The notes beneath the pieces were generated by a model. The model made no database searches. It saw nothing but the letters and a program-made list of their open reading frames with translations, and was not told the DNA's origin. Shown piece by piece: positions 4,074 to 36,894 of a stretch of DNA of 64,000 nt (its first letter is position 1; every line of letters starts with the position of its first letter). Source of the DNA: Actinomycetes bacterium (GTDB taxonomy: Bacteria; Actinomycetota; Actinomycetes; DATJPE01); contig JANPBY010000101.1 in NCBI GenBank assembly GCA_031430645.1, positions 6,112-70,111 on the forward strand, in the 5' to 3' direction. Position numbers and translations under genes: made by a program.

Positions 4074-4445
4074 TCAGTGGGCGTCGAGCAAGTCGATCAC
4101 GAAGACCAGGGTCTGACCGCCCAGCCGGTGGCCACTGCTTGCTGGGCCATACGCCAACTCGGGAGGAACGACGAGTTGACGGCGTCCGCCGACGCGCATT
4201 CCGGGAATACCGTCCTGCCAGCCCTGGATCAGGCCCTTGAGCGGGAACTCGATGGGCTCGCCGCGGTCCCACGAGGCGTCGAACTGCTCACCGGTCACGA
4301 AGTCGACTCCGACGTAGTGGACGAGGACCCGACCACCGGGAACCGCCTCAGCTCCCGTCCCCACGACCACATCAGCAATCGACAACTCCGTCGGCGGCTC
4401 GCCGCCCGGGAACTCGATGTCAGGCTTCTCGCTCAGGTCGGTCAT
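4074..4445 (-). CDS. FKBP-type peptidyl-prolyl cis-trans isomerase (single domain, cytoplasmic)
   Basis: 123-aa protein with FKBP signature segments (VHYVGVDFVTGEQFDASWDRGEPIEFPLKGLIQGWQDGIPGMRVGGRRQLVVPPELAYG). Confidence 0.85.
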   Translation of the reverse strand: MTDLSEKPDIEFPGGEPPTELSIADVVVGTGAEAVPGGRVLVHYVGVDFVTGEQFDASWDRGEPIEFPLKGLIQGWQDGIPGMRVGGRRQLVVPPELAYGPASSGHRLGGQTLVFVIDLLDAH

Positions 4446-4457
4446 CGTGGACTCTCT

Positions 4458-5447
4458 TCAGCTTGTGGGTGGGATCGCGTCGATGATGTCGACAACGACG
4501 GCTGTGCTGTCGATCGCCGGATCGCCGGCGGGTTCGGCCGGCACCAGCAGAAGCACTTGGCTACCGACCGGGATCCCGACCAACTTGTCGAATGGAGTTG
4601 CAGAACCCTCGACACCCACCGCGACGCCTAGGGGCTGCCCTGTAGACCAAGTGGATCCGAGTGCATTGTTGTTCCAGGTCACGGCTTCGTACTGAACCAC
4701 GACGAAGGATCCTTCGACGATCTGCGGCCCGTCCCCGCGGGCCAGGACCACCGTCGTCACCTCTGTGGGAGGAGCACTGCCCGCGGGCACAGTCAAGGTC
4801 GGCCGAGTCCCCGGGAAGCCGCTGACCGTCGGCAACCCCGTGAGGTTGGGGTTGCTGGGCGTTGATCCGGAATCCGACGTTGCTCCGGCGGAATAGGCAC
4901 GGAGAATGTCCACCACGAAGACGAGGGTGTCGTCGCCGCTGATCTTCGCGTCGGGCTGTCCGGCCTCGCCGTAGCCGAGCGACGGCGGGATCGCCATCAC
5001 GACGCGACTGCCCACGGTCTGCCCGACCAGCGCCGCGTCCCATCCGGGAATGACTTTCCCGACCCCGATGGCGAAGGACGTCGGTGTCGGGCGACCGAAA
5101 GAGGAGTCGAAGACGTTCCCGTCATCCCAGGTCTCCCCGAGGTAGTTGACGATCAAGAGGTCACCGACCTTGACCACGGGACCCGAGCCGGTGACCAGGG
5201 TCTTGGTCACGAGCGCATCGGCAGGGTCTTCCTCTGGAATGGTGATCTTGGGGGTCTCCCCAAATCCACCCTCCACATCAGGGATCGGCCCGGCCGCGGT
5301 CACGATGGGGGCCGGGGCGGACGCAGACGGGGAGGCAGCTGATCCGGCGGAGGAGCCGCCACACGCACTCATCAACGTCGCCAAGGCGACCGCTGTCAGT
5401 GAAAGAGCGAGGTGGTGCGGGGTACGGCGGCGCACGGGTGAACTCAT
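4458..5447 (-). CDS. FKBP-type peptidyl-prolyl isomerase lipoprotein with tandem FKBP domains
   Basis: N-terminal signal plus lipobox (LMSACGG), then two FKBP domains (…VNYLGETWDDGNVFDSSF… and …VQYEAVTWNNNALGSTWS…). Confidence 0.8.
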   Translation of the reverse strand: MSSPVRRRTPHHLALSLTAVALATLMSACGGSSAGSAASPSASAPAPIVTAAGPIPDVEGGFGETPKITIPEEDPADALVTKTLVTGSGPVVKVGDLLIVNYLGETWDDGNVFDSSFGRPTPTSFAIGVGKVIPGWDAALVGQTVGSRVVMAIPPSLGYGEAGQPDAKISGDDTLVFVVDILRAYSAGATSDSGSTPSNPNLTGLPTVSGFPGTRPTLTVPAGSAPPTEVTTVVLARGDGPQIVEGSFVVVQYEAVTWNNNALGSTWSTGQPLGVAVGVEGSATPFDKLVGIPVGSQVLLLVPAEPAGDPAIDSTAVVVDIIDAIPPTS

Positions 5448-5495: not shown

Positions 5496-6857
5496 TCACA
5501 TGGAGGCGATGAGGCGTTCCACCCGCTCGTCGACCGATCGAAATGGGTCCTTGCACAGCACAGTGCGCTGGGCTTGGTCATTGAGCTTGAGATGGACCCA
5601 GTCGACGGTGAAGTCCCGACGGTTCTCCTGAGCCTTCTTGATGAATTCGCCGCGGAGCTTGGCCCTGGTCGTCTGCGGAGGAACGGACTTGGCTTGAAAC
5701 ACGTCGAGATCTCGGGTTACCCGTTCCACCTGACCCTTGCGTTCGAGCAAGGTGTACAGCCCCCGACGCCGATCGATGTCGTGATACGCGAGGTCGAGCT
5801 GGGCGATCCTCGGGGACTCGAGGGGCAGGTCGTGCTTGACCATGTAGCGTTCGAGGAGCCGCTTCTTGATGACCCAGTCGATCTCACGTTCGATGGGGCC
5901 GAAATTCTGGCTCTCGACCGCGGTCAGGGTGCGCTCCCAGAGGTCCAGCACCTGCTTGGTGACACCCTCGTCGATGCCTCTGCGGGCGGCGAAGTCGCAG
6001 GCCCGGGTGAGGTATTCGGTCTGGATGTCCAACGCTGACACCTCGCGACCGTTGATTAATCGGACGGTGCGACGTCCGGTCGTGTCGTGGGAGATCTCCC
6101 GAATCGCCCGAATCGGGTTCTCCAGGGTGAGGTCCCTCATGACGACGCCGGACTCGATCAGTTGCAGGACCAGGTCAGCCGAGCCGACCTTGAGCAGCGT
6201 CGTGGTCTCAGCCATGTTCGAGTCGCCGACGATGACATGAAGGCGTCGGTATTTCTCGGCGTCAGCGTGTGGCTCGTCACGGGTGTTGATGATGGGGCGC
6301 GAGCGCGTCGTGGCGGACGAGACCCCCTCCCAGATGTGCTCGGCGCGCTGACTCACGCAAAAGACCGCGCCCCGCGGGGTCTGCAACACCTTCCCGGCCC
6401 CGCAGATCATCTGCCGACTGACCAGGAACGGGATCAAGATGTCAGACAGGCGCCCGAAATCCCCGGAGCGCCCCACGAGGTAGTTCTCGTGACACCCGTA
6501 TGAGTTCCCAGCCGAGTCTGTGTTGTTCTTGAACAAGTAGACGTCGCCGGGGATGCCCTCCTCGTGGAGACGACGTTCCGCATCGACGAGCAGGCCTTCG
6601 AGGATGCGTTCGCCGGCCTTGTCGTGGGTGACGAGATCGATGAGCGAGTCGCATTCTGGGGTCGCGTACTCAGGGTGGCTCCCGACGTCAAGGTAAAGAC
6701 GAGCGCCGTTGCGGAGGAAGACGTTGGACGATCGACCCCACGAGACCACGCGCCGAAACAAGTAGCGCGCGACCTCATCCGGTGAGAGCCGGCGTTGGCC
6801 CTTGAACGTGCACGTGACGCCGTACTCGTTCTCCAACCCGAAGATCCGACGCTCCAT
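5496..6857 (-). CDS. pafA: Pup--protein ligase PafA
   Basis: [16 protein letters not shown] start plus the carboxylate-amine ligase core shared with Dop ([45 protein letters not shown]). Position matches Rv2097c. Confidence 0.9.
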
Positions 6858-6876
6858 GACCACCTACCTCCGCGGA

Positions 6877-7572
6877 TCAGCCAGCAAGCAAGGCGGCGAG
6901 GCGCGAGTTGGCGATGCGTCTGAACTTTCGGGGCGCGTCTCGGGTCCGATCCAGGACGGCGACTTCGAGTTGAGCCGGCTCGAGGGTGCGGGTTTCGGCG
7001 GCGCCGTGTTCGCCGAGGAGGCGTACGGCGGTGCGCAACGCCTCGCCAAGCTCCATCCCGTCTGAATAGGCGACCTCGAGCGCGTCGGAGATCGCCTCGG
7101 ACTGGCCACCCATGGCGACGTAGCCGTGCTCGTCGCCGACCGAACCGTCGAACGTCAGTCGGTAGAGCTGATCATCCTCGACCGACTCGCCCACCTCCGC
7201 GACCACGATCTCGACCTCATAGGGCTTGTTGTTCTCTGTAAAGATTGTGCCCAGGGTTTGGGCGTAGGCGTTGGCGAGTCCGCGGCCGGAGACATCCCGC
7301 CGGTCGTAGGAATAGCCGCGCACATCGGCCAGCCGCACCCCGGCGACCCGAAGGTTCTCAAACTCGTTGTACTTGCCCACGGCAGCGAAAGCGATGCGAT
7401 CGTAGATTTCACTGACCTTGTGAAGTGCACGGGAGGGGTTCTCCGCAACGAAAAGAATGCCATCGGCGTATTGCACGACGACGACACTTCGACCCCGGGC
7501 GATTCCCTTGCGGGCGTAGTCGGCCTTGTCCTTGATGACCTGCTCAGGCGAGACATAGAACGGCATCGACAT
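6877..7572 (-). CDS. prcA: 20S proteasome alpha subunit
   Basis: [75 protein letters not shown] is near-colinear with mycobacterial PrcA. Confidence 0.92.
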
Positions 7573-7600: not shown

Positions 7601-8443
7601 TCACGTCAGGGGCGCGAGTGGGCCATCAGGACGGGTGTTCCTGGCGTCGACGACTGCCCGAACGATGGTCGACACAGCGGCGTCGGTGTAGCGGGTGTAG
7701 CCGTCGGCGGTGACGACGGCCACAACCGGGAAGATCCCTCGGGTGAGATCCGGACCTCCAGTCGCGGAATCGTCGTCGGCGGCGTCATAGAGGGCCTGCA
7801 CGCACGCCCCCACGACCTCGTCGGCTGTGAGGTCGTCGCGATACAGCTTCTTCAACGAGCCTCGGGCAAACATCGACCCGGAACCGACCGCATGGAACGC
7901 CAGCTCCTCGTAGCGACCACCTGTCACATCGAAGGAGATGATGCGGCCCCTATCGCTCTCCTGGTCGTATCCCGCAAACATGGGCACGACGGCGAGGCCC
8001 TGCATGGCCATCGCAAGATTCCCTCTGATCATGGCCGCCAATCGGTTGGCCTTGCCGTCGAGGGAGAGCGTGGTGCCCTCAATCTTCTCGTAGTGTTCGA
8101 GTTCGACCTGGAACAGGCGTACGACCTCGATCGCCAAGCCAGCTGTTCCCGCAATGCCGATGCAGGAGAACTCATCCGCCGGGAAGACCTTCTCGATGTC
8201 ACGCTGGGCGATGACGTTGCCCATGGTGGCGCGCCGGTCGCCCGCCATGACGACACCACCGGGGAAGGTAGCCGCCACGATGGTTGTGCCATGGGGCGCG
8301 TCGAAGGAACGGCCCTCAGGCAACACGTGAGAGCCGGGAAGAAGACTGGGTGCGAATCCCGACAGAAAATCGGTGAACGAAGACGTCCCGACGCTCATGA
8401 AGGCGGCCGGGAGCCGCCCTCCGGCTGAGAAGCTGGTGGTCAT
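7601..8443 (-). CDS. prcB: 20S proteasome beta subunit with propeptide
   Basis: Propeptide followed by the HG|TTIVA Thr-1 processing site, then Ntn-hydrolase core. The start ATG overlaps the pup stop (ATGA). Confidence 0.92.
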
Positions 8444-8694
8444 TGCCCGCCCTTCTGGACAAACCCACGGACGAACTCCTCGGAGTTGGTCTCGAGCACT
8501 TCGTCGATCTCGTCCAGGATCGCGTCGATGTCGTCGTCGAGGACGGCCTTTCGTTCAGCGACTTCGGCTGCGGTGGCGTCCTGGACTGCAGCCTCATCGC
8601 CGGTCTCAGCCGCTGTCTCATCGCGGCGGCCGACCTTTTCTTGGCCGCCACCGGTGTCTTTGGTCGCCATCGCCGCCTCCTGCTCCTGCGCCAT
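8440..8694 (-). CDS. pup: Prokaryotic ubiquitin-like protein Pup
   Basis: C-terminal ...[11 protein letters not shown] with the acidic helix [15 protein letters not shown] is diagnostic for Pup. An alternative start at the second ATG (about 8670) has an AGGAGG Shine-Dalgarno 6 nt upstream. Confidence 0.9.
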
Positions 8695-8888
8695 CCTGCG
8701 CCGCTGGGCGCACGCACCTTGACCCTACCTATCGGCAGCCTGGGGAGTTCTCTCGCCACGCGTGCACCCTTGAGTTAGGCGTCCATGCTGCCGATAGCCA
8801 CCCGGTGAGCCCGTCCGAGCCCCGCCACGCCCGTAACCGGCGTGCTGCTGGGTCCACCACGGCGCAGCGCCGCTCGCGCGGGTGGCGA

Positions 8889-9353
8889 GTGGTCAACGGG
8901 GGGACGGCACTGGCCGCAGCTGGTGCGCTAACGGCGACGGCCTGGGGAACGGCTGCCCTGGCCGCAACGTCTGCCGCTGAAGCCGGTTCGCAGCCACCAG
9001 CCCCGTCCGCCAAGGAGCCACTTCCCACGGCCACTGCACTAGGGCCGACGCTGACTCCCCCCGCTACGCCTCCGACGGCTGCATCGAGCCCAGGGGCCTC
9101 GCCCAGGGGAAGCGCACCCGCACAGGGAAAGCCCGCATCCTCGCCAGCGTCCAGCACCTCGACGAAGCCGAAACCCGCTGCCAAGAAGTCGCCGGCATCA
9201 AGCAAGGCGACCACAAGGCCATCCTCGTCACCCAAGGCCAGTGCCTCACCGAAACCCAAGCCATCCTCTCCCAAGCCGTCACCGCCACCCTCCTCCAGTC
9301 AGCCTCCCGAGCCGACACCGGAGCCGAGCCCAACGCGCAGCTCAGGGTCGTGA
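8889..9353 (+). CDS. Possible secreted Pro/Ser/Thr/Ala/Lys-rich low-complexity protein. Coding frame is uncertain (see findings).
   Basis: A GTG at 8889 opens a signal-peptide-like MVNGGTALAAAGALTATAWGTAALAATSAAEA, followed by a long PSTAK-rich tract. Its TGA overlaps the apbE GTG (GTGA). However, the alternative frame (the apbE frame) has at least as strong third-position GC in this interval. Confidence 0.25.
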   Translation: MVNGGTALAAAGALTATAWGTAALAATSAAEAGSQPPAPSAKEPLPTATALGPTLTPPATPPTAASSPGASPRGSAPAQGKPASSPASSTSTKPKPAAKKSPASSKATTRPSSSPKASASPKPKPSSPKPSPPPSSSQPPEPTPEPSPTRSSGS

Positions 9354-10339
9354 CCAAGTCCAGGACCACAGCCGACCACGTGGCCGAGTGGCCGATGTGG
9401 TCGACAACGGTGCGGGTCGTCACACGCGATCCGGGCATGCTCAGGGTCGCCAGCCAAGCCGTCGAGTCCGAGCTCGTGGGCATGGACCGTGCCGCCAGCC
9501 GCTTTCGCGTCGACAGCGAGGTGTGCCGGCTGGCGGCCTCGGGAGGTCGTCCGACGCGAGTCTCTCCCCTGCTGGCAGCGACGTTGCGGGCCGCGTTGCG
9601 AGTTGCCTCAGCGACCGGCGGTGCTGTCGACCCGACTGTCGGAAACGCCTTGGTAGCCGCTGGCTACGACGCCGACTTCTCCGTGATCTCGGCGCGAGCG
9701 CCATCGTCGTACGACCCTCGACCAGCACTAGGCCCTCAACCAGCTCTGGACCCTCAACCAGCTCTGTCACTCCCGATCGAGCTTCAGGTGGCCACCACGT
9801 GGAGGGACATCCACCTGGTGGGCGACGTGGTCACGTTGCCGGACGGTCTGCTGCTGGACCTTGGCGCCACCGGCAAGGCACTCGCGGTCGACCGGGCTGC
9901 CGTACGCGCGTCGATCGCTGCTCAAGGTCCGGTCCTCGTCGCGGTTGGAGGTGACCTTCGCGCCGCAGGGACGTCACGAAGCGAGCCATGGCTCGTCGAA
10001 GTCGCCGAACGCCCAGAGGACGAGGGAGTGGCCTGGGTGCGTGTATCGGACGGCGGGGTGGCCACGTCGACCACTTTGACGCGTCGATGGCGGGCTGGAG
10101 CGGGCTGGGCGCATCACGTATTCAACCCCCGAACCGGTCGGCCGGCTGAGGTTCATTGGAGGACTGCGACTGTCGCTGCGGCGACCTGTGTCGACGCCAA
10201 CGCCGCCAGCACCGCCAGCATCGTCAAGGGACTCGGGGCTGAGGCCTGGCTGCGCTCCGGCCGTCTACCCTCCCGGCTGGTAGACCGCGACGGCGCCGTA
10301 CTGGTCGTTGCGGGTTGGCCGGAGCAGGTGGCGGCGTGA
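9350..10339 (+). CDS. apbE: FAD:protein FMN transferase (ApbE family)
   Basis: 329-aa protein with ApbE-like conserved blocks (…MWSTTVRVV…, …DLGATGKALAVDRAA…, …ATSTTLTRRW…HHVFNPRTGRPA…). The GTG start overlaps the upstream stop. Confidence 0.8.
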   Translation: MTKSRTTADHVAEWPMWSTTVRVVTRDPGMLRVASQAVESELVGMDRAASRFRVDSEVCRLAASGGRPTRVSPLLAATLRAALRVASATGGAVDPTVGNALVAAGYDADFSVISARAPSSYDPRPALGPQPALDPQPALSLPIELQVATTWRDIHLVGDVVTLPDGLLLDLGATGKALAVDRAAVRASIAAQGPVLVAVGGDLRAAGTSRSEPWLVEVAERPEDEGVAWVRVSDGGVATSTTLTRRWRAGAGWAHHVFNPRTGRPAEVHWRTATVAAATCVDANAASTASIVKGLGAEAWLRSGRLPSRLVDRDGAVLVVAGWPEQVAA

Positions 10340-10947
10340 CGCTCCTGCAAGACCCGGCCCTCCTCTGGTACGTCAATCGCGCAGCTGGGCTCGTGCTGCT
10401 CGTGCTCCTGACAACGGCGACCGTGCTCGGAGTGGGCGCGGTCGACCGACGCACGAGGTCCCGCGTGGGACCGGCGGGCGTTCGTCGAACCCGCCCGGTC
10501 GGCCGCTTTCCGGGCTTTGTGCTCCCCGAGCTGCACCGCCGGGTGGCACTGGTTGCCGTAGCTCTGACTTTCCTGCATATCATTCCTGCTGTTCTGGACG
10601 ACTACGTCCCGATCGACTGGCTCGACGTCGTCGTTCCCTTCGCTTCGGACTACCGTCCGTTGTGGCTCGGCTTGGGGACGCTGACCTTCGATGTCTTGGC
10701 GGTTGTCGTGGTCACCGCACTGGTGAGGACGCGGATCGGCCCGGTCTCCTGGAAGGTCATCCACAAATCCGTCTACGTGACCTGGCCGTTGGCGGTCCTT
10801 CACAGCGTGAACACCGGGACCGACACAGGTGGAGTCTGGGGTTGGTTGGTCCTTGGTTGCGTCCTCGCGGTCGTCGCCGCTTGCTTCGCGCGACTGCGGA
10901 GCATGGCGGCCAGTGACCGTGCAGCCCGACGCCCCGTGCTCCGCTGA
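10315..10947 (+). CDS. Ferric-reductase-like transmembrane domain protein (MsrQ/YedZ-like heme-binding membrane component)
   Basis: 210-aa protein with about six TM helices and conserved His in helices (…ALTFLHIIPAVLD…, …WKVIHKSVYVTWPLAVLHSV…). It immediately follows apbE, with possible GTG at 10336 overlapping the apbE TGA. Confidence 0.6.
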   Translation: MAGAGGGVTLLQDPALLWYVNRAAGLVLLVLLTTATVLGVGAVDRRTRSRVGPAGVRRTRPVGRFPGFVLPELHRRVALVAVALTFLHIIPAVLDDYVPIDWLDVVVPFASDYRPLWLGLGTLTFDVLAVVVVTALVRTRIGPVSWKVIHKSVYVTWPLAVLHSVNTGTDTGGVWGWLVLGCVLAVVAACFARLRSMAASDRAARRPVLR

Positions 10948-10954
10948 CCTGTCT

Positions 10955-12451
10955 CTAGTTGGTGGCGGCGAGCGCAACCAACAAGTCAGCTGCCGTTGGA
11001 CTGCGATCGAGCAGGCTCTCAACGTGCGCGCGGGTGCCGCGCAACGGCTCCATCGTGGGTACCCGTTGCAGGGACTCCTGACCGGGAACGTCAAAAATCA
11101 CCGAGTCCCAGGATGCCGCCGCAATGTGCTCGGGATAGCGACGCAGGCACTCCCCACGGAAGTAGGCGCGGGTGTCCTCGGGAGGATCCGTGACCGCCGA
11201 CTGCACCTCGGCGTCGCTCAGCAACCGGTCCATCCGGCCAGCCGCCACGAGTCGGTGATAGAGCCCCTTCTCGGGCCGGACGTCGCTGTATTGCAGATCG
11301 ATGGCATGGAGTTTGGAGGCGTCCCACCCGAGCCCGTCGCGCTCGCGGTAGCCCTGAAGCAGCGACAGCTTGGCCACCCAGTCGAGCTCGCGGGAGCAGC
11401 GCTGGGGGTCATCTGCGAGTCGGTCCACCATCGACTCCCACCGAGAAAGAATGTCCATCGTCTGGGCATCGGCGTCGACTCCATACCGATCCGCAACGAA
11501 CTTGCGGGCCTGCTCGGCATACTCGCCTTGCAGTTGAACAGCGGTGAGCCGCCGGCCAGAGGCCAGGGTGATCTGATGGCGCAGCGTCGGGTCATGGGAG
11601 ACGGCATGCACCTCCGAAACGGGATGCGCGACCGTCAAGCTGTCGCCGAGGAAGCCCGCCTCGATCATCGACAAGACCAAGGACGTGGTCCCCATCTTCA
11701 GATAGGTCGCGACCTCGCTGAGGTTGGCATCTCCAATGATGACGTGCAGCCGCCGGTACTTCGTGGGGTCGGCATGCGGCTCATCGCGGGTGTTGATGAT
11801 CGGCCGCTTCAGGGTGGTCTCGAGCCCGACCTCGACTTCGAAGTAGTCAGCCCGTTGGCTGAGCTGAAACCCGTCGTCCTGCCCTTCCTGGCCCAGCCCG
11901 ACGCGTCCGCTGCCGGCGATCACCTGTCGGCTCACGAAGAACGGCGTGAGCTGCGTGACGATGTCGCTGAACGGCGTGGCCCGGCTCATCAGGTAGTTCT
12001 CGTGGGTGCCGTAGGACGCACCCTTGTTGTCGGTGTTGTTCTTGTAGAGAGTGATCAGCGGATCACCGACTGCAGCCAACGCCCTGCGCGCGGCCTCCGC
12101 CATCACGAGGAGCCCAGCCGCGTCGTAGCGAACGGCATCGCGGGGGTTGGTGACTTCGGGAGATGAGTATTCGGGGTGCGCGTGGTCGACGTACAGCCGC
12201 GCACCGTTGGTCAAGATCACATTGGCGAGGCCGAGGTCTTCGTCGGTGAGCTGACTGTCATCCGCGAGGTCGCGTGCCAGGTCGAACCCGCGCGCATCCC
12301 GCAGTGGGCTCTCCTCGTCGAAGTCCCAGCGGGGCCTGCGGCCGCGTAGGGCGACACCCGCGTAGGCGTTGACGATCTGACTCGAGGCAAGCATCGCGTT
12401 GGCTCCGGGTTGTCCGACGACGGAGATGCCGTACTCGGTCTCGATGCCCAT
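10955..12451 (-). CDS. dop: Pup deamidase/depupylase Dop
   Basis: [12 protein letters not shown]… start region plus the Dop/PafA ligase-fold core ([44 protein letters not shown]). The exact start lies between 12451 and 12469. Confidence 0.9.
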
Positions 12452-12509
12452 CACGCGGAGAACGCTCACCCTTTGAGGGTACGTCGCCCGTCGGTGGGAC
12501 GCCGGGACG

Positions 12510-13073
12510 TCAGCCGGCAGCGATCGCGGAGTTGACGAAGGCCGTCGTCTGCTTGGCATTGCGTCCGATGCACAGAGCCAGGACTTCGCCGTCGAACCAC
12601 GCCTCGAAGGTCGAGCCTCCCGCCGATGCTTGGTGGACCATGATCCCGGACTCGGTACGCGTAGTCACTTCTGCCCCCGCGGTCACAACGGTCAGCAGCG
12701 CTGGTCCCAACGCATCCGCCTGCTCAGAGTTGGGGTCCACGTCTGGGTTCACGCCGAAGAGCACCAGGCCGCCAACCTCGCCACCGCCAGGATTGTCGTT
12801 GCCCTTGGTCACCGTGTAGACCGAAAGTCCGGTGTAGATGCCCTGCGAACTGGTCACGGCACCCTCAAACGCGGACTTGGCAGCAGCCGGGGCGGCGACG
12901 AGTGTGTAGCCAGGCACGTCTGGGGCCGGCGGGCCTGGTGCGACAGGGCTCGGGGTGACACCGGAGTCACTAGGGGTCGACGGACTCGGAGCGCCGACGG
13001 TGTTCGAGCTCGTTGGCTTCGGGGAGCTCGTCGACGGAGATGGTCCGGCACAGGACAGCAGCACTCCCGTCAC
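12510..13073 (-). CDS. Hypothetical exported or lipoprotein-like protein
   Basis: 187-aa ORF between dop and arc. The upstream in-frame sequence reads …[20 protein letters not shown] (signal plus lipobox-like) but has no canonical start upstream of the GTG at 13073. The start is unresolved. Confidence 0.4.
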
Positions 13074-13114: not shown

Positions 13115-14818
13115 TCAGAGGTACTGGCCTGTGTTGGCCACCGTGTCGATGGAACGGCCGGCCTCAGTGCCCTGCTTGCCCTGGATCAAGGTGCGGATGA
13201 ACACGATTCGCTCACCCTTCTTGCCCGAGATCCGCGCCCAGTCATCGGGGTTGGTGGTGTTGGGAAGGTCCTCGTTCTCCTTGAATTCATCGACGCAGGC
13301 CGCCAGCAGGTGCTGCACCCGGATGCCGCGCTGGTTGTGGTCGAGGAGATCCTTGATGGCCATCTTCTTCGCGCGACTGACGATGTTCTCGATCATCGCG
13401 CCGGAGTTGAAGTCCTTGAAGTACAGAACCTCCTTGTCGCCACCGGCATAGGTGACTTCCAGGAAGCGGTTTTCCTCCAGCTCGGTGTACATGCGCTCGA
13501 CGGCCATCTGGATCATCGCTGCAGTGGTGGCAGTCGGCGAGCCACCGTGCTCGGCGAGGTCATCGGCGTGCAACGGGAGCTCAGGGACGAGGTACTTGGT
13601 GAAGATGTCGCGTGCACCCTCGGCGTCGGGGCGCTCGATCTTGATCTTCACGTCGAGACGACCGGGCCGCAGGATCGCCGGGTCGATCATGTCCTCGCGG
13701 TTGGAAGCACCGATGACGATGACGTTTTCGAGCCCCTCGACCCCGTCGATCTCGCTGAGCAACTGCGGCACGATGGTGTTCTCGACGTCGCTGGAGACTC
13801 CGGTTCCACGCGTGCGGAACAACGAGTCCATCTCGTCGAAGAACACGATGACCGGGACGCCCTCGGAGGCCTTCTCCCTGGCTCGCTGAAACACCAGCCG
13901 GATGTGTCGCTCGGTCTCGCCGACGTACTTGTTGAGGAGCTCGGGGCCTTTGATGTTGAGGAAGTAGGAACGACCTTCCGGCTTGCCGGTGACCTCGGCG
14001 ACCTTCTTGGCGAGGGAGTTGGCGACCGCCTTGGCGATCAGCGTCTTCCCACACCCCGGGGGGCCGTACAGCAGGATGCCCTTCGGTGGCTTGAGCTGGT
14101 GCTCGAGGAAGAGATCCGCATGGAGATAGGGCAGTTCGACGGCGTCCCTGATCGTCTCGATCTGGGCAGCAAGACCGCCGATGGACGCATAGTCGATGTC
14201 CGGGACCTCTTCGAGGACCAGCTCTTCCACTTCGGACTTCGGGATGCGCTCATAGACGTGTTGGGAGCGTGGCTCGAGCAGTAGGGAGTCGCCGGCGCGC
14301 AGAGGTTGGTCCAGGAGTGAGCCGGCGAGGGTCACCACCCGCTCGTCGTCTGTGTGACCCAGGACGAGGGCCCGCATGCCGTCCTCAAGGATTTCCTTGA
14401 GCATGACGACTTCTCCGACGGTTTCGAACTCCAGCGCGCGGATCACGACCATGGCCTCGTTGAGCATGACTTCCTGGCCTCGTCGAAGTTCTTCAGCGTC
14501 CACCTCGGGGCTCACGGACACCCGGAGCTTGCGACCACCGGTGAAGATGTCCGATGTCCCGTCACCGTGGTCCTCGAGGAACACTCCGAATCCCGACGGC
14601 GGTTGAGCGAGCCGATCGACTTCTTCCTTGAGCATGACGATCTGGTCGCGTGCCTCGCGCAGCGTCGCCGTCAGTCGCTGGTTTTGAGCCCCTGCTGCGG
14701 ACAACTCAGATTGGATCGCAGTGAGTCGCTCCTCCAGCGCGCGCGACACGCTCTCCGACGTCGCGGCCTCAGGCCTGTCGTCCTCGGTACCCGGCACGGT
14801 GCTCACCTCCCGGTTCAC
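13115..14818 (-). CDS. arc: Proteasome-associated AAA ATPase ARC/Mpa
   Basis: N-terminal coiled coil, OB region, AAA+ module ([20 protein letters not shown], Walker [10 protein letters not shown]) and the C-terminal …TGQYL proteasome-docking motif. Confidence 0.92.
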
Positions 14819-36808: not shown

Positions 36809-36894
36809 GTCCGGGTGGCGGAATTGGCAGACGCGCTAGCTTGAGGTGCTAGTGCCCTTTACCGGGCATGGGGGTTCAAGTCCCCCCTCGGACA
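36809..36894 (+). tRNA. tRNA-Leu (anticodon GAG)
   Basis: Manual fold: 7-bp acceptor stem GTCCGGG/CTCGGAC with one G-U pair; D arm GCG…CGC; anticodon stem CTAGC/GCTAG with loop TTGAGGT giving anticodon GAG; long variable arm typical of class II Leu; T arm GGGGG-TTCAAGT-CCCCC; discriminator A. CCA is not encoded. Confidence 0.85.

Follow-up and report, generated by a model that had tools for sequence, protein, structure and literature searches.

Introduction

The closest described relatives of the gene unit studied here are the MsrQ-like clusters surveyed by Meheust et al. (2021, eLife, PMC8238504), in which apbE, the gene of the flavin adenine dinucleotide (FAD):protein flavin mononucleotide (FMN) transferase, lies beside the gene of a PF01794 di-haem membrane cytochrome, with presumed transmembrane electron transfer to a flavinylated partner. 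MsrQ-like cytochromes are known membrane partners of flavinylated proteins in Actinobacteria, and in 31 of the surveyed clusters a NuoF-like protein was found on the NAD(P)H side (PMC8238504). That survey left out components for which neither a signal peptide nor a lipobox was predicted, and its orphan apbE genes imply unidentified substrates (PMC8238504). Here we describe an apbE-cytochrome unit in a 64,000-nucleotide stretch of the genome of an Actinomycetes bacterium (assembly GCA_031430645.1, contig JANPBY010000101.1), hereafter the window, where both genes follow a gene for a small low-complexity protein whose extreme C-terminus is a candidate site of flavinylation.

Flavinylation sites carried on a tail have been described before. 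In the FMN_red proteins of Firmicutes (PF03358; Huang et al. 2024, mSystems, PMC11334425), a natural unstructured C-terminal extension encoded beside apbE is flavinylated, and the flavin folds back into the protein's own site on a folded flavoprotein. In the synthetic Flavin-tag (Tong et al.; PMC9400968, PMC12052999), the engineered C-terminal peptide D-G-L-S-G-A-T, taken from NqrC, is short and unstructured and suffices for a signal-less ApbE acting in the cytoplasm. ApbE needs just a 7-residue unstructured peptide and acts on C-terminal tags; it accepts Ser, and cytosolic ApbEs exist (PMC12052999, PMC9400968). Within the motif, changing Asp to Ala has only a minor effect (PMC12052999), and changing Gly to Ala or Ala to Val halves flavinylation (PMC12052999, PMC9400968, PMC11334425). 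The ApbE of Klebsiella pneumoniae, which has no signal peptide, acts in the cytoplasm on soluble fumarate reductase, a cytoplasmic enzyme with a canonical internal motif and no pairing with an export-type protein or cytochrome (PMC12052999). A small exported protein is also known from flavinylation clusters, in which a redox-relevant motif at the extreme C-terminus is the only conserved feature.

The present locus shares with the MsrQ-like clusters the pairing of apbE with the cytochrome gene and, in its wider family, the NuoF-like protein. However, it has no FMN_bind partner, its ApbE carries neither signal peptide nor lipobox, and the candidate substrate is a disordered, domain-less small protein with its motif at the very end; moreover, the clade of the window lacks the NuoF-like and ferredoxin genes and has the unit sited between pup and dop. 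As in FMN_red, the site would lie on a disordered C-terminal tail encoded beside apbE, but no folded domain was detected here, and a membrane cytochrome, as a distinct protein, would be the partner. The ApbE is signal-less, like the enzymes used with the Flavin-tag and found in K. pneumoniae. Unlike the engineered tag, the natural tail reads P-T-R-S-S-G-S in the window and P-[H/Q]-T-T-T-G-A-S in Streptomyces, with no Asp. Where the small exported protein has a cysteine pair, we propose an acceptor hydroxyl for FMN, and the two proteins are unrelated in sequence and occur in other taxa. FMN_red is the nearest natural precedent for a tail-borne site, and the Flavin-tag is the nearest functional analogue.

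Results and Discussion

The low-complexity frame upstream of apbE is very probably the coding one

The genes of the small protein, ApbE and the cytochrome form one translationally coupled three-gene operon, extending from 8805 to 10947. The TGA of the small open reading frame (ORF) at 9351-9353 overlaps the GTG start of apbE at 9350, and the apbE TGA and the cytochrome GTG overlap as GTGA.

Upstream of apbE two frames are open. The low-complexity frame is free of stops from far upstream to its own TGA, and in the apbE frame the 123 codons between 8981 and the start contain neither a stop nor an ATG, GTG or TTG. The preliminary description of this DNA had pointed out the second opening together with its high third-position GC, and our recomputation agrees (GC at positions 1/2/3 of 0.67/0.56/0.84 in the apbE frame and 0.57/0.84/0.68 in the low-complexity frame). 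It had left three explanations side by side, namely an ApbE extended from a non-canonical start codon, a frameshift or indel, and a real low-complexity gene that tolerates the overlap.

Orthologous loci, gathered via ApbE homologues, point to the last of these. In the window and in L001, L003 (= L014), L005, L006, L007 and L078, the start region, the hydrophobic segment and the C-terminal end of the small protein lie in one unbroken frame, which speaks against a frameshift or indel. Among these close orthologues the conserved elements read [V/M]SPxxPRHAR, GWRxVNxGT...TAWGTAALA and ...PEPxPT[R/K]S[S/A]GS-stop, and between these elements lies a linker of variable length that defies alignment. 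The apbE frame, in turn, is closed 13, 13, 13 and 2 codons before the apbE start in L003, L005, L006 and L007, that is, in four of six orthologues. Differences summed over all pairs of the six orthologues fall at codon positions 1/2/3 of the low-complexity frame 18/8/41 times in the start block, 51/88/222 times in the hydrophobic block and 38/26/145 times in the last 14 codons. This third-position excess argues for selection on the low-complexity frame, since the same sites are first positions in the apbE frame; likewise, synonymous changes outnumber non-synonymous ones in the conserved blocks.

The statistics of the window itself point the other way. Codon-usage log-odds trained on neighbouring genes are +0.41 per codon for the apbE frame and -0.48 for the low-complexity frame, so the scoring of codon usage and periodicity that the preliminary description had recommended favours the apbE frame. 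We discarded this scoring, and third-position GC with it, as a discriminator, because codons of the form NCN (N, any nucleotide) shape position 3 of the apbE frame and lead it to the wrong choice. The 123 codons of 8982-9350, the last 7 residues included, encode 34 Pro, 29 Ser, 19 Ala, 12 Thr and 11 Lys, and their second position is C in 86 cases and G in 17 more. The second position of these Pro/Ser/Thr/Ala codons is read as the third in the apbE frame, which explains the 84% GC there. A stop in the apbE frame needs a T-ending codon followed by one that starts with A or G, and T is the last base of just 12 of the 123 codons. When the codons of the small ORF were shuffled in 20,000 trials, the apbE frame stayed stop-free in 6.6% of them, and the same offset frame is open in 14.4% of the 123-codon windows of the confident genes in the window. 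At such chance levels its openness here is unremarkable.

On comparative grounds, we are therefore left with little doubt about the frame itself: the low-complexity frame is very likely coding, and the opening of the apbE frame upstream of 9350 is a non-coding by-product of NCN codons. In the orthologues this upstream ORF is conserved, and no ordinary intergenic region takes its place. As a lesson for annotation, Pro/Ser/Thr/Ala-rich genes in high-GC genomes mislead both frame statistics and gene callers.

Two further ways of joining the small ORF to ApbE were considered and rejected. A programmed frameshift has no slippery site, the junction is variable, and in several loci the apbE start lies 0-23 nucleotides past the stop. 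The locus L002/L004 could be taken for an in-frame fusion of a signal sequence to ApbE, but reading through it needs two frameshifts, and indel errors are plausible in this metagenome-assembled genome (MAG) of the MFD series. In the gene table of the P0003 contig, an upstream plus-strand ORF of at least 189 residues overlaps apbE by 4 nucleotides.

The small ORF starts upstream of the position first proposed

The preliminary description had started the small protein at the GTG at 8889. In five relatives that codon is CTG, CTG, CTG, GCG and GTC. At the position equivalent to the GTG at 8805, by contrast, six of the seven aligned loci have GTG and the seventh has ATG, and L078 also has GTG. This conserved codon, together with the coding pattern of substitutions from 8805 onwards, indicates a protein of 182 residues that includes an Arg-rich N-region. 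Since a scan of 8600-11100 for promoter and terminator consensus sequences returned nothing, the start at 8805 rests on conservation. No Shine-Dalgarno sequence precedes it, and because a conserved box lies just before 8805 the mRNA of the small ORF is possibly leaderless. In cultured genomes the small ORFs have ATG starts with upstream ribosome-binding sites of the GGAGG type. In the annotation by NCBI of six genomes, the small ORF is a 'hypothetical protein' with the same starts as predicted here.

An exact look-up of five forms of the small ORF of the window, and of a minus-strand shadow ORF, found none of them in the public protein collection. The public form of the window ApbE has only 314 residues, beginning at the ATG at 9395, 15 codons short of the conserved start, and it loses the conserved AEW residues. 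Among orthologues, whose N-termini the preliminary description had suggested aligning, the ATG or GTG that overlaps the upstream stop is the only apbE start conserved across loci (about 30 of 39), and the remaining starts lie 0-23 nucleotides downstream.

Between the divergent starts of pup and the small ORF lies an inverted repeat of 15 nucleotides (8729-8743 and 8783-8797), whose arms are 93% complementary and 39 nucleotides apart; the right arm stops 8 nucleotides short of the GTG at 8805. Across seven orthologous loci, the repeat cores ATCGGCA and TGCCGAT, as well as the boxes CTCGCCACGC and CTTGAGTT, show no variation or almost none. The region 8729-8797 may represent an operator or paired promoter elements.

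The small protein belongs to a widespread family with a constant C-terminal residue

The order small ORF - apbE - MsrQ-like cytochrome gene recurs in Streptomyces, Kitasatospora, Umezawaea, Nocardioides, Cryobacterium, Herbiconiux and Nostocoides, in a Mycobacterium MAG, and in Acidimicrobiia and Solirubrobacterales/Thermoleophilia. An intact small ORF is present in 45 of the 48 assessable apbE-cytochrome loci, from Actinomycetes, Acidimicrobiia and Thermoleophilia, and in none of eight ApbE loci that have no cytochrome gene. By its distribution and conservation, the small ORF is a real gene of an unnamed, widespread family of actinobacterial small proteins.

Disrupted copies occur in three of the 48 loci. 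L004 (= L002) carries two frameshifts at 4380-4977, which spread the small ORF over three frames, and its last residues are SSGT, with a terminal Thr. L015 has one frameshift (about 4500-4950), and L011 retains a remnant of 23 codons (about 4900-5000) that still ends in GGS. Splits also affect prcB, the cytochrome gene, dop and arc of L001. The breaks in L001, L004, L011 and L015 look like assembly indels in MAGs of the MFD series; pseudogenes are also possible.

Across a set of 44 non-redundant family members no sequence is alignable, and what recurs is a plan. At least three Arg or Lys lie within the 20 residues before the hydrophobic segment in 43 of the 44, and an Arg-Arg pair (RR) in 38. 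The hydrophobic segment is single and rich in Ala, Gly, Thr and Val, and the linker behind it, 31-143 residues long and 57-100% Pro/Ser/Thr/Ala/Gly, cannot be aligned. In the window protein V29-A54 is the single hydrophobic segment by hydropathy; with RR before it, an Ala/Gly/Thr-rich h-region (Kyte-Doolittle about 1.3) and ALA-A at 52-54, it resembles a signal peptide or membrane anchor.

Pfam and NCBIfam searches with the small ORF in both frames, and with six orthologues, assigned no family, the sub-threshold matches being to anti-sigma/Asr-type 'helix plus low-complexity' proteins. A profile search with the Streptomyces and Kitasatospora members gave 144 clusters, none with a Pfam domain; their named members are all 'hypothetical protein' at NCBI, and a few carry an unrelated UniRef cluster name. 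Full-text literature searches returned no paper describing this family of small proteins.

The C-terminal tail is the most constant part. Among the 44 proteins, the last residue is Ser in every case. Position -1 is Gly in 37, Ala in 4 and Asp in 3, position -2 is Gly in 24 and Ser in 9, position -3 is Ser in 35 and Thr in 9, and position -5 is Thr or Ala in 34. Of the homologues in the 144 clusters, the 120 listed form the Streptomyces-type set, and 119 of these end in [S/T]GAS, the consensus being P-[H/Q]-T-T-T-G-A-S; the exception comes from a contig of 777 nucleotides. [S/T]GAS is the core ApbE flavinylation motif.

We considered whether a Shine-Dalgarno sequence or the gene overlap could be the source of the conserved 'GS-stop', and codon variation rules this out. 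In 30 loci the penultimate Gly is encoded by GGG 13 times, GGC 11 times, GGA 4 times and GGT twice, and the terminal Ser codons are TCG (18), TCA (12) and TCC (5). The ATGA or GTGA overlap fixes the third base of the last codon alone and does not force Ser; TCC occurs exactly where the apbE start leaves the last base of the Ser codon unused (L013, L021, L031, L041 and L056), and GGC-TCG holds no ribosome-binding site. The varied Gly and Ser codons indicate that the tail is constrained at the level of amino acids.

ApbE and the neighbouring cytochrome

The preliminary description had recognized an ApbE and a ferric-reductase/MsrQ-like haem protein with overlapping genes, and both identifications stand. 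ApbE matches PF02424 with 149 bits (cut-off 25.6) over profile positions 3-255 of 266, and solved ApbE structures in the PDB at E values from 3e-17 to 9e-7. The motifs D94-P95-T96, G200-G201-D202, T239-S240, H255-H256...P260 and D282...S287-T288 are invariant in eight orthologues and align with those of 1vrm and 3pnd. Hydropathy reveals no signal peptide or hydrophobic segment in the 329-residue protein, and about 25 inspected homologues start directly at the catalytic domain, with no signal peptide and no fusion to the small ORF. The enzyme appears, from its sequence, to resemble the cytosolic minority of ApbEs, and the label 'extracytosolic' that had been given to it does not fit the window ApbE or its close relatives.

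The cytochrome meets the PF01794 profile marginally (28.5 bits, cut-off 28), and NCBIfam gives weak sub-threshold matches to MsrQ and MamZ. The two pairs of haem-ligating residues, His67/His81 (spacing 14) and His143/His156 (spacing 13), are retained, residue by residue, by at least 95% of 50 orthologues. The six transmembrane helices first attributed to it, the usual number, were reduced to five by hydropathy, made up of four strong segments and the helix of His143-His156. A single helix precedes the first His-bearing helix, and the first loop (38-67) has a net charge of +7, which suggests that the N-terminus lies outside. Beyond the fourth His, the predicted outer face carries a conserved loop, H-x-x-N-x-G-[S/T]-D.

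The apbE-cytochrome order is conserved in about 48 loci. In loci outside the clade of the window (L008-L059), a NuoF-like gene (PF01512 + PF10589) and a Fer4_15 ferredoxin gene follow the cytochrome gene in 42-46 cases, and a two-component system, made of an OmpR-type response regulator and a histidine kinase, precedes the unit in 28; examples lie at L054 6235-7593 and 7560-7787, L037 2373-3137 and L046 2912-4312. The NuoF-like, ferredoxin and two-component genes are missing at the locus of the window clade, and no NuoF-like or ferredoxin match occurs in the 64-kb window.

Other possible targets of this ApbE were sought. An FMN-binding domain or S/T-G-A-T motif had been suggested as worth looking for in the products of both frames; no FMN_bind domain was found in them, and the only motif-like element consists of the last residues of the small protein. 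No FMN_bind domain or D-x-x-[ST]-G-A-[ST] ORF lies within 5 kb on either side of any locus or in the 64-kb window, and [ST]GATx[ST]S ORFs are likewise absent from the window and from all locus flanks; a motif search of all loci and the window gave chance matches only, for example DDYGTGAS in an EAL-domain protein. We rejected the cytochrome as a target since it has no invariant Ser or Thr in a motif-like context, and the NuoF-like protein since its gene is absent from the window clade.

A proposed flavin on the tail of the small protein

We propose that the small protein is a substrate of the adjacent ApbE. The tail would take this role because it is the only conserved [S/T]GA[S/T]-like element ending in Ser or Thr that is linked to this ApbE, and because the Streptomyces branch has the exact core motif. 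With FAD as donor, ApbE would attach FMN to the hydroxyl of the terminal Ser before the tail leaves the cytoplasm; such loading ahead of export is what a cytoplasmic ApbE and a tail placed outside would require. The weakly hydrophobic N-terminal segment with its RR would then export the flavinylated chain or anchor it in the membrane. The twin-arginine translocation (Tat) system exports proteins already loaded with cofactor, and export of the Tat type would suit a substrate of this kind, as well as N-terminal segments that often close with AxA in the family. Thanks to the long flexible linker, the C-terminal FMN could reach the outer haem of the MsrQ-like cytochrome, pick up electrons there and deliver them to an extracytoplasmic acceptor. 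In most other Actinobacteria, the NuoF-like protein and ferredoxin encoded downstream would supply the cytochrome with electrons drawn from NAD(P)H. FMN is given in UniProt as a cofactor of Escherichia coli MsrQ, and, as a lead only, the tethered FMN could occupy an MsrQ-type FMN site, if one is present here.

We rate the chances of this mechanism, in which ApbE flavinylates the terminal Ser and so makes a flexible flavin carrier for the cytochrome, as about even. Taken as a whole, gene structure and flavinylated tail together, the reading is one that we mildly favour. We regard the small protein as a probable flavin-bearing partner of a membrane cytochrome, of a kind not described before and found across Actinobacteria. 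More tentatively, with the balance slightly against it, the small proteins could make up a phylum-wide class of ApbE substrates: disordered and domain-less, with an export or anchor segment, loaded in the cytoplasm with FMN on a C-terminal Ser, and then serving as a 'flavin on a string' from the cytochrome to extracytoplasmic acceptors.

Several observations weigh against the proposal. Asp is found at position -6 in none of the 44 proteins, its place being taken by Pro, His, Ala, Val or Gln. The window tail S-S-G-S, with Ser at -2 and Gly at -1, departs from the middle of the canonical [S/T]-G-A-[S/T], and Gly-Ala at these positions is confined to the Streptomyces/Kitasatospora branch. Ser/Gly-rich tails also resemble SG-type motifs partly by composition alone. 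The RR regions of the small proteins deviate from the strict Tat consensus S/T-R-R-x-F-L-K. Finally, as ApbE has no signal and the positive-inside rule places the tail outside, loading before export must be assumed.

The main alternative is an unmodified accessory, a real small protein acting as an export adaptor for ApbE (Tat 'hitch-hiking') or as a sixth helix of the cytochrome, with the tail as a docking peptide and the true substrate elsewhere. In its favour, ApbE and its relatives are signal-less and the neighbouring small ORF carries the sole export-type segment, the stop of the small ORF and the start of apbE overlap tightly, the cytochrome has five helices and not six, and the canonical Asp is missing from the tail, as is the canonical Ala in most lineages. 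However, an accessory role leaves unexplained why the terminal residue always bears a hydroxyl (even the disrupted L004 has Thr) and why the Streptomyces-type members end so uniformly in the exact [S/T]GAS. Furthermore, no other candidate substrate appeared in the roughly 48 loci, and none of the homologues inspected showed the small ORF naturally fused to ApbE. We consider this explanation unlikely, although it deserves to be taken seriously. A coupling or leader device, or an untranslated ORF whose conserved ends are DNA signals and whose peptide has no function, seems to us very improbable. It would fit the overlap of the last small-ORF codons with the apbE start, the invariable TGA stop, the hypervariable linker and some enrichment of GGG/GGA at the penultimate Gly, which might have the character of a ribosome-binding site. 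Against this, 13 of the 30 loci with a penultimate Gly use GGC or GGT, which give no such site, and loci whose apbE start lies 0-23 nucleotides further downstream still have a terminal Ser, encoded by TCC. The Arg-rich region and the hydrophobic segment persist across three classes of Actinomycetota despite unalignable sequences, the conserved blocks show an excess of synonymous over non-synonymous changes, and the small ORFs have their own ribosome-binding sites and ATG starts.

An N-terminal extension of ApbE over 8981-9349, arising from a non-canonical start, a frameshift or an indel, would make the low-complexity frame an artefact, and we hold it to be almost certainly wrong. It draws on the 123 open codons of the apbE frame with their high third-position GC and better codon-usage score, and on gene callers, which extended ApbE likewise in the relatives P0002 (440 residues), P0004 (492) and P0011 (423). 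Yet 110-180 residues of these products are spurious, and the sequences of the extensions are unlike each other and unlike the apbE-frame translation of the window, save where the other frame is conserved. The extension holds no ATG, GTG or TTG, its frame is closed within 2-13 codons upstream in four orthologues, the substitutions sit at its codon position 1, and a stop-free frame is expected by chance at 6.6-14%. The orthologous ApbEs, in addition, begin at the ATG or GTG that overlaps the upstream stop.

Should the flavinylated tail prove true, the small protein would be the first natural ApbE substrate made of a tail motif only, and it would bring flavinylation before export and a new type of extracytoplasmic electron carrier into actinobacterial redox biology. 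Orphan apbE genes are many in flavinylation surveys, and a small protein ending in [S/T]GAS or [S/T]xGS is a directly testable candidate substrate, which occurs in many Streptomyces and other Actinobacteria.

Genomic surroundings of the unit

The features of the locus are collected in Table 1. As the preliminary description had observed, the plus-strand unit splits the minus-strand pair pup and dop. The order pup - [small ORF - apbE - cytochrome gene] - dop is shared by eight loci of related uncultured Actinomycetota, L078 among them, and this placement is limited to one clade.

Table 1. Genes and protein segments at the pup-dop locus of the window, with the basis or character of each assignment.
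Feature	Position	Strand	Basis or character
pafA	5496-6863	minus	Pup-proteasome cluster of the window
prcA	6877-7572	minus	Pup-proteasome cluster
prcB	7601-8443	minus	Pup-proteasome cluster
pup (flank)	8440-8694	minus	Pfam Pup, E 3e-25
Divergent intergenic region of pup and small ORF	8695-8804	.	Conserved boxes and inverted repeat
Gene of small low-complexity protein, 182 aa (stop included)	8805-9353	+	Orthologue conservation
Arg-rich N-region, residues 1-28	8805-8888	+	Eight Arg; RR at 12-13 and 22-23
Weakly hydrophobic Ala/Gly/Thr-rich segment V29-A54, ending ALA-A; signal-peptide- or anchor-like	8889-8966	+	Kyte-Doolittle 1.29-1.35
Variable Pro/Ser/Thr/Ala/Lys-rich linker, ~120 aa	8967-9329	+	Translation; apbE frame also open here
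C-terminal heptapeptide P-T-R-S-S-G-S, proposed ApbE site Ser182	9330-9350	+	Family tail conservation
apbE, FAD:protein FMN transferase, 329 aa, GTG start	9350-10339	+	PF02424
MsrQ-like/ferric-reductase-domain cytochrome b, 203 aa, GTG start	10336-10947	+	PF01794
dop (flank)	10955-12559	minus	Pup_ligase, E 7e-190
arc	13115-14818	minus	Pup-proteasome cluster

Nothing in these data points to a functional link between the unit and pupylation. Pupylation targets Lys, and the linkers of the pup-dop clade (the window, L001, L003, L005-L007 and L078) are rich in Lys and Arg (13-27 residues); elsewhere in the family 0-4 is the rule, with up to 13 in a few lineages, and acidic linkers are frequent.

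At the other end of the unit, the stop of the cytochrome gene (10945-10947) and the minus-strand stop of dop (10955-10957) converge, 7 nucleotides apart, and no terminator-like hairpin was found. With so short a gap and no hairpin, the two transcripts probably overlap.

A lipoprotein-like ORF with a Pro/Ser/Thr-rich start lies between dop and arc (12510-13073, minus strand) and overlaps the first 50 nucleotides of the 534-residue dop ORF. Within the latter, the Pup_ligase domain does not begin until residue 35, which suggests that the dop start may be further downstream. The lipoprotein-like ORF is present in L001 and L002/L004 (about 42% identity) and not in L003 or L005-L007. In the 64-kb window, the single Rfam match is a tRNA at 36809-36894.

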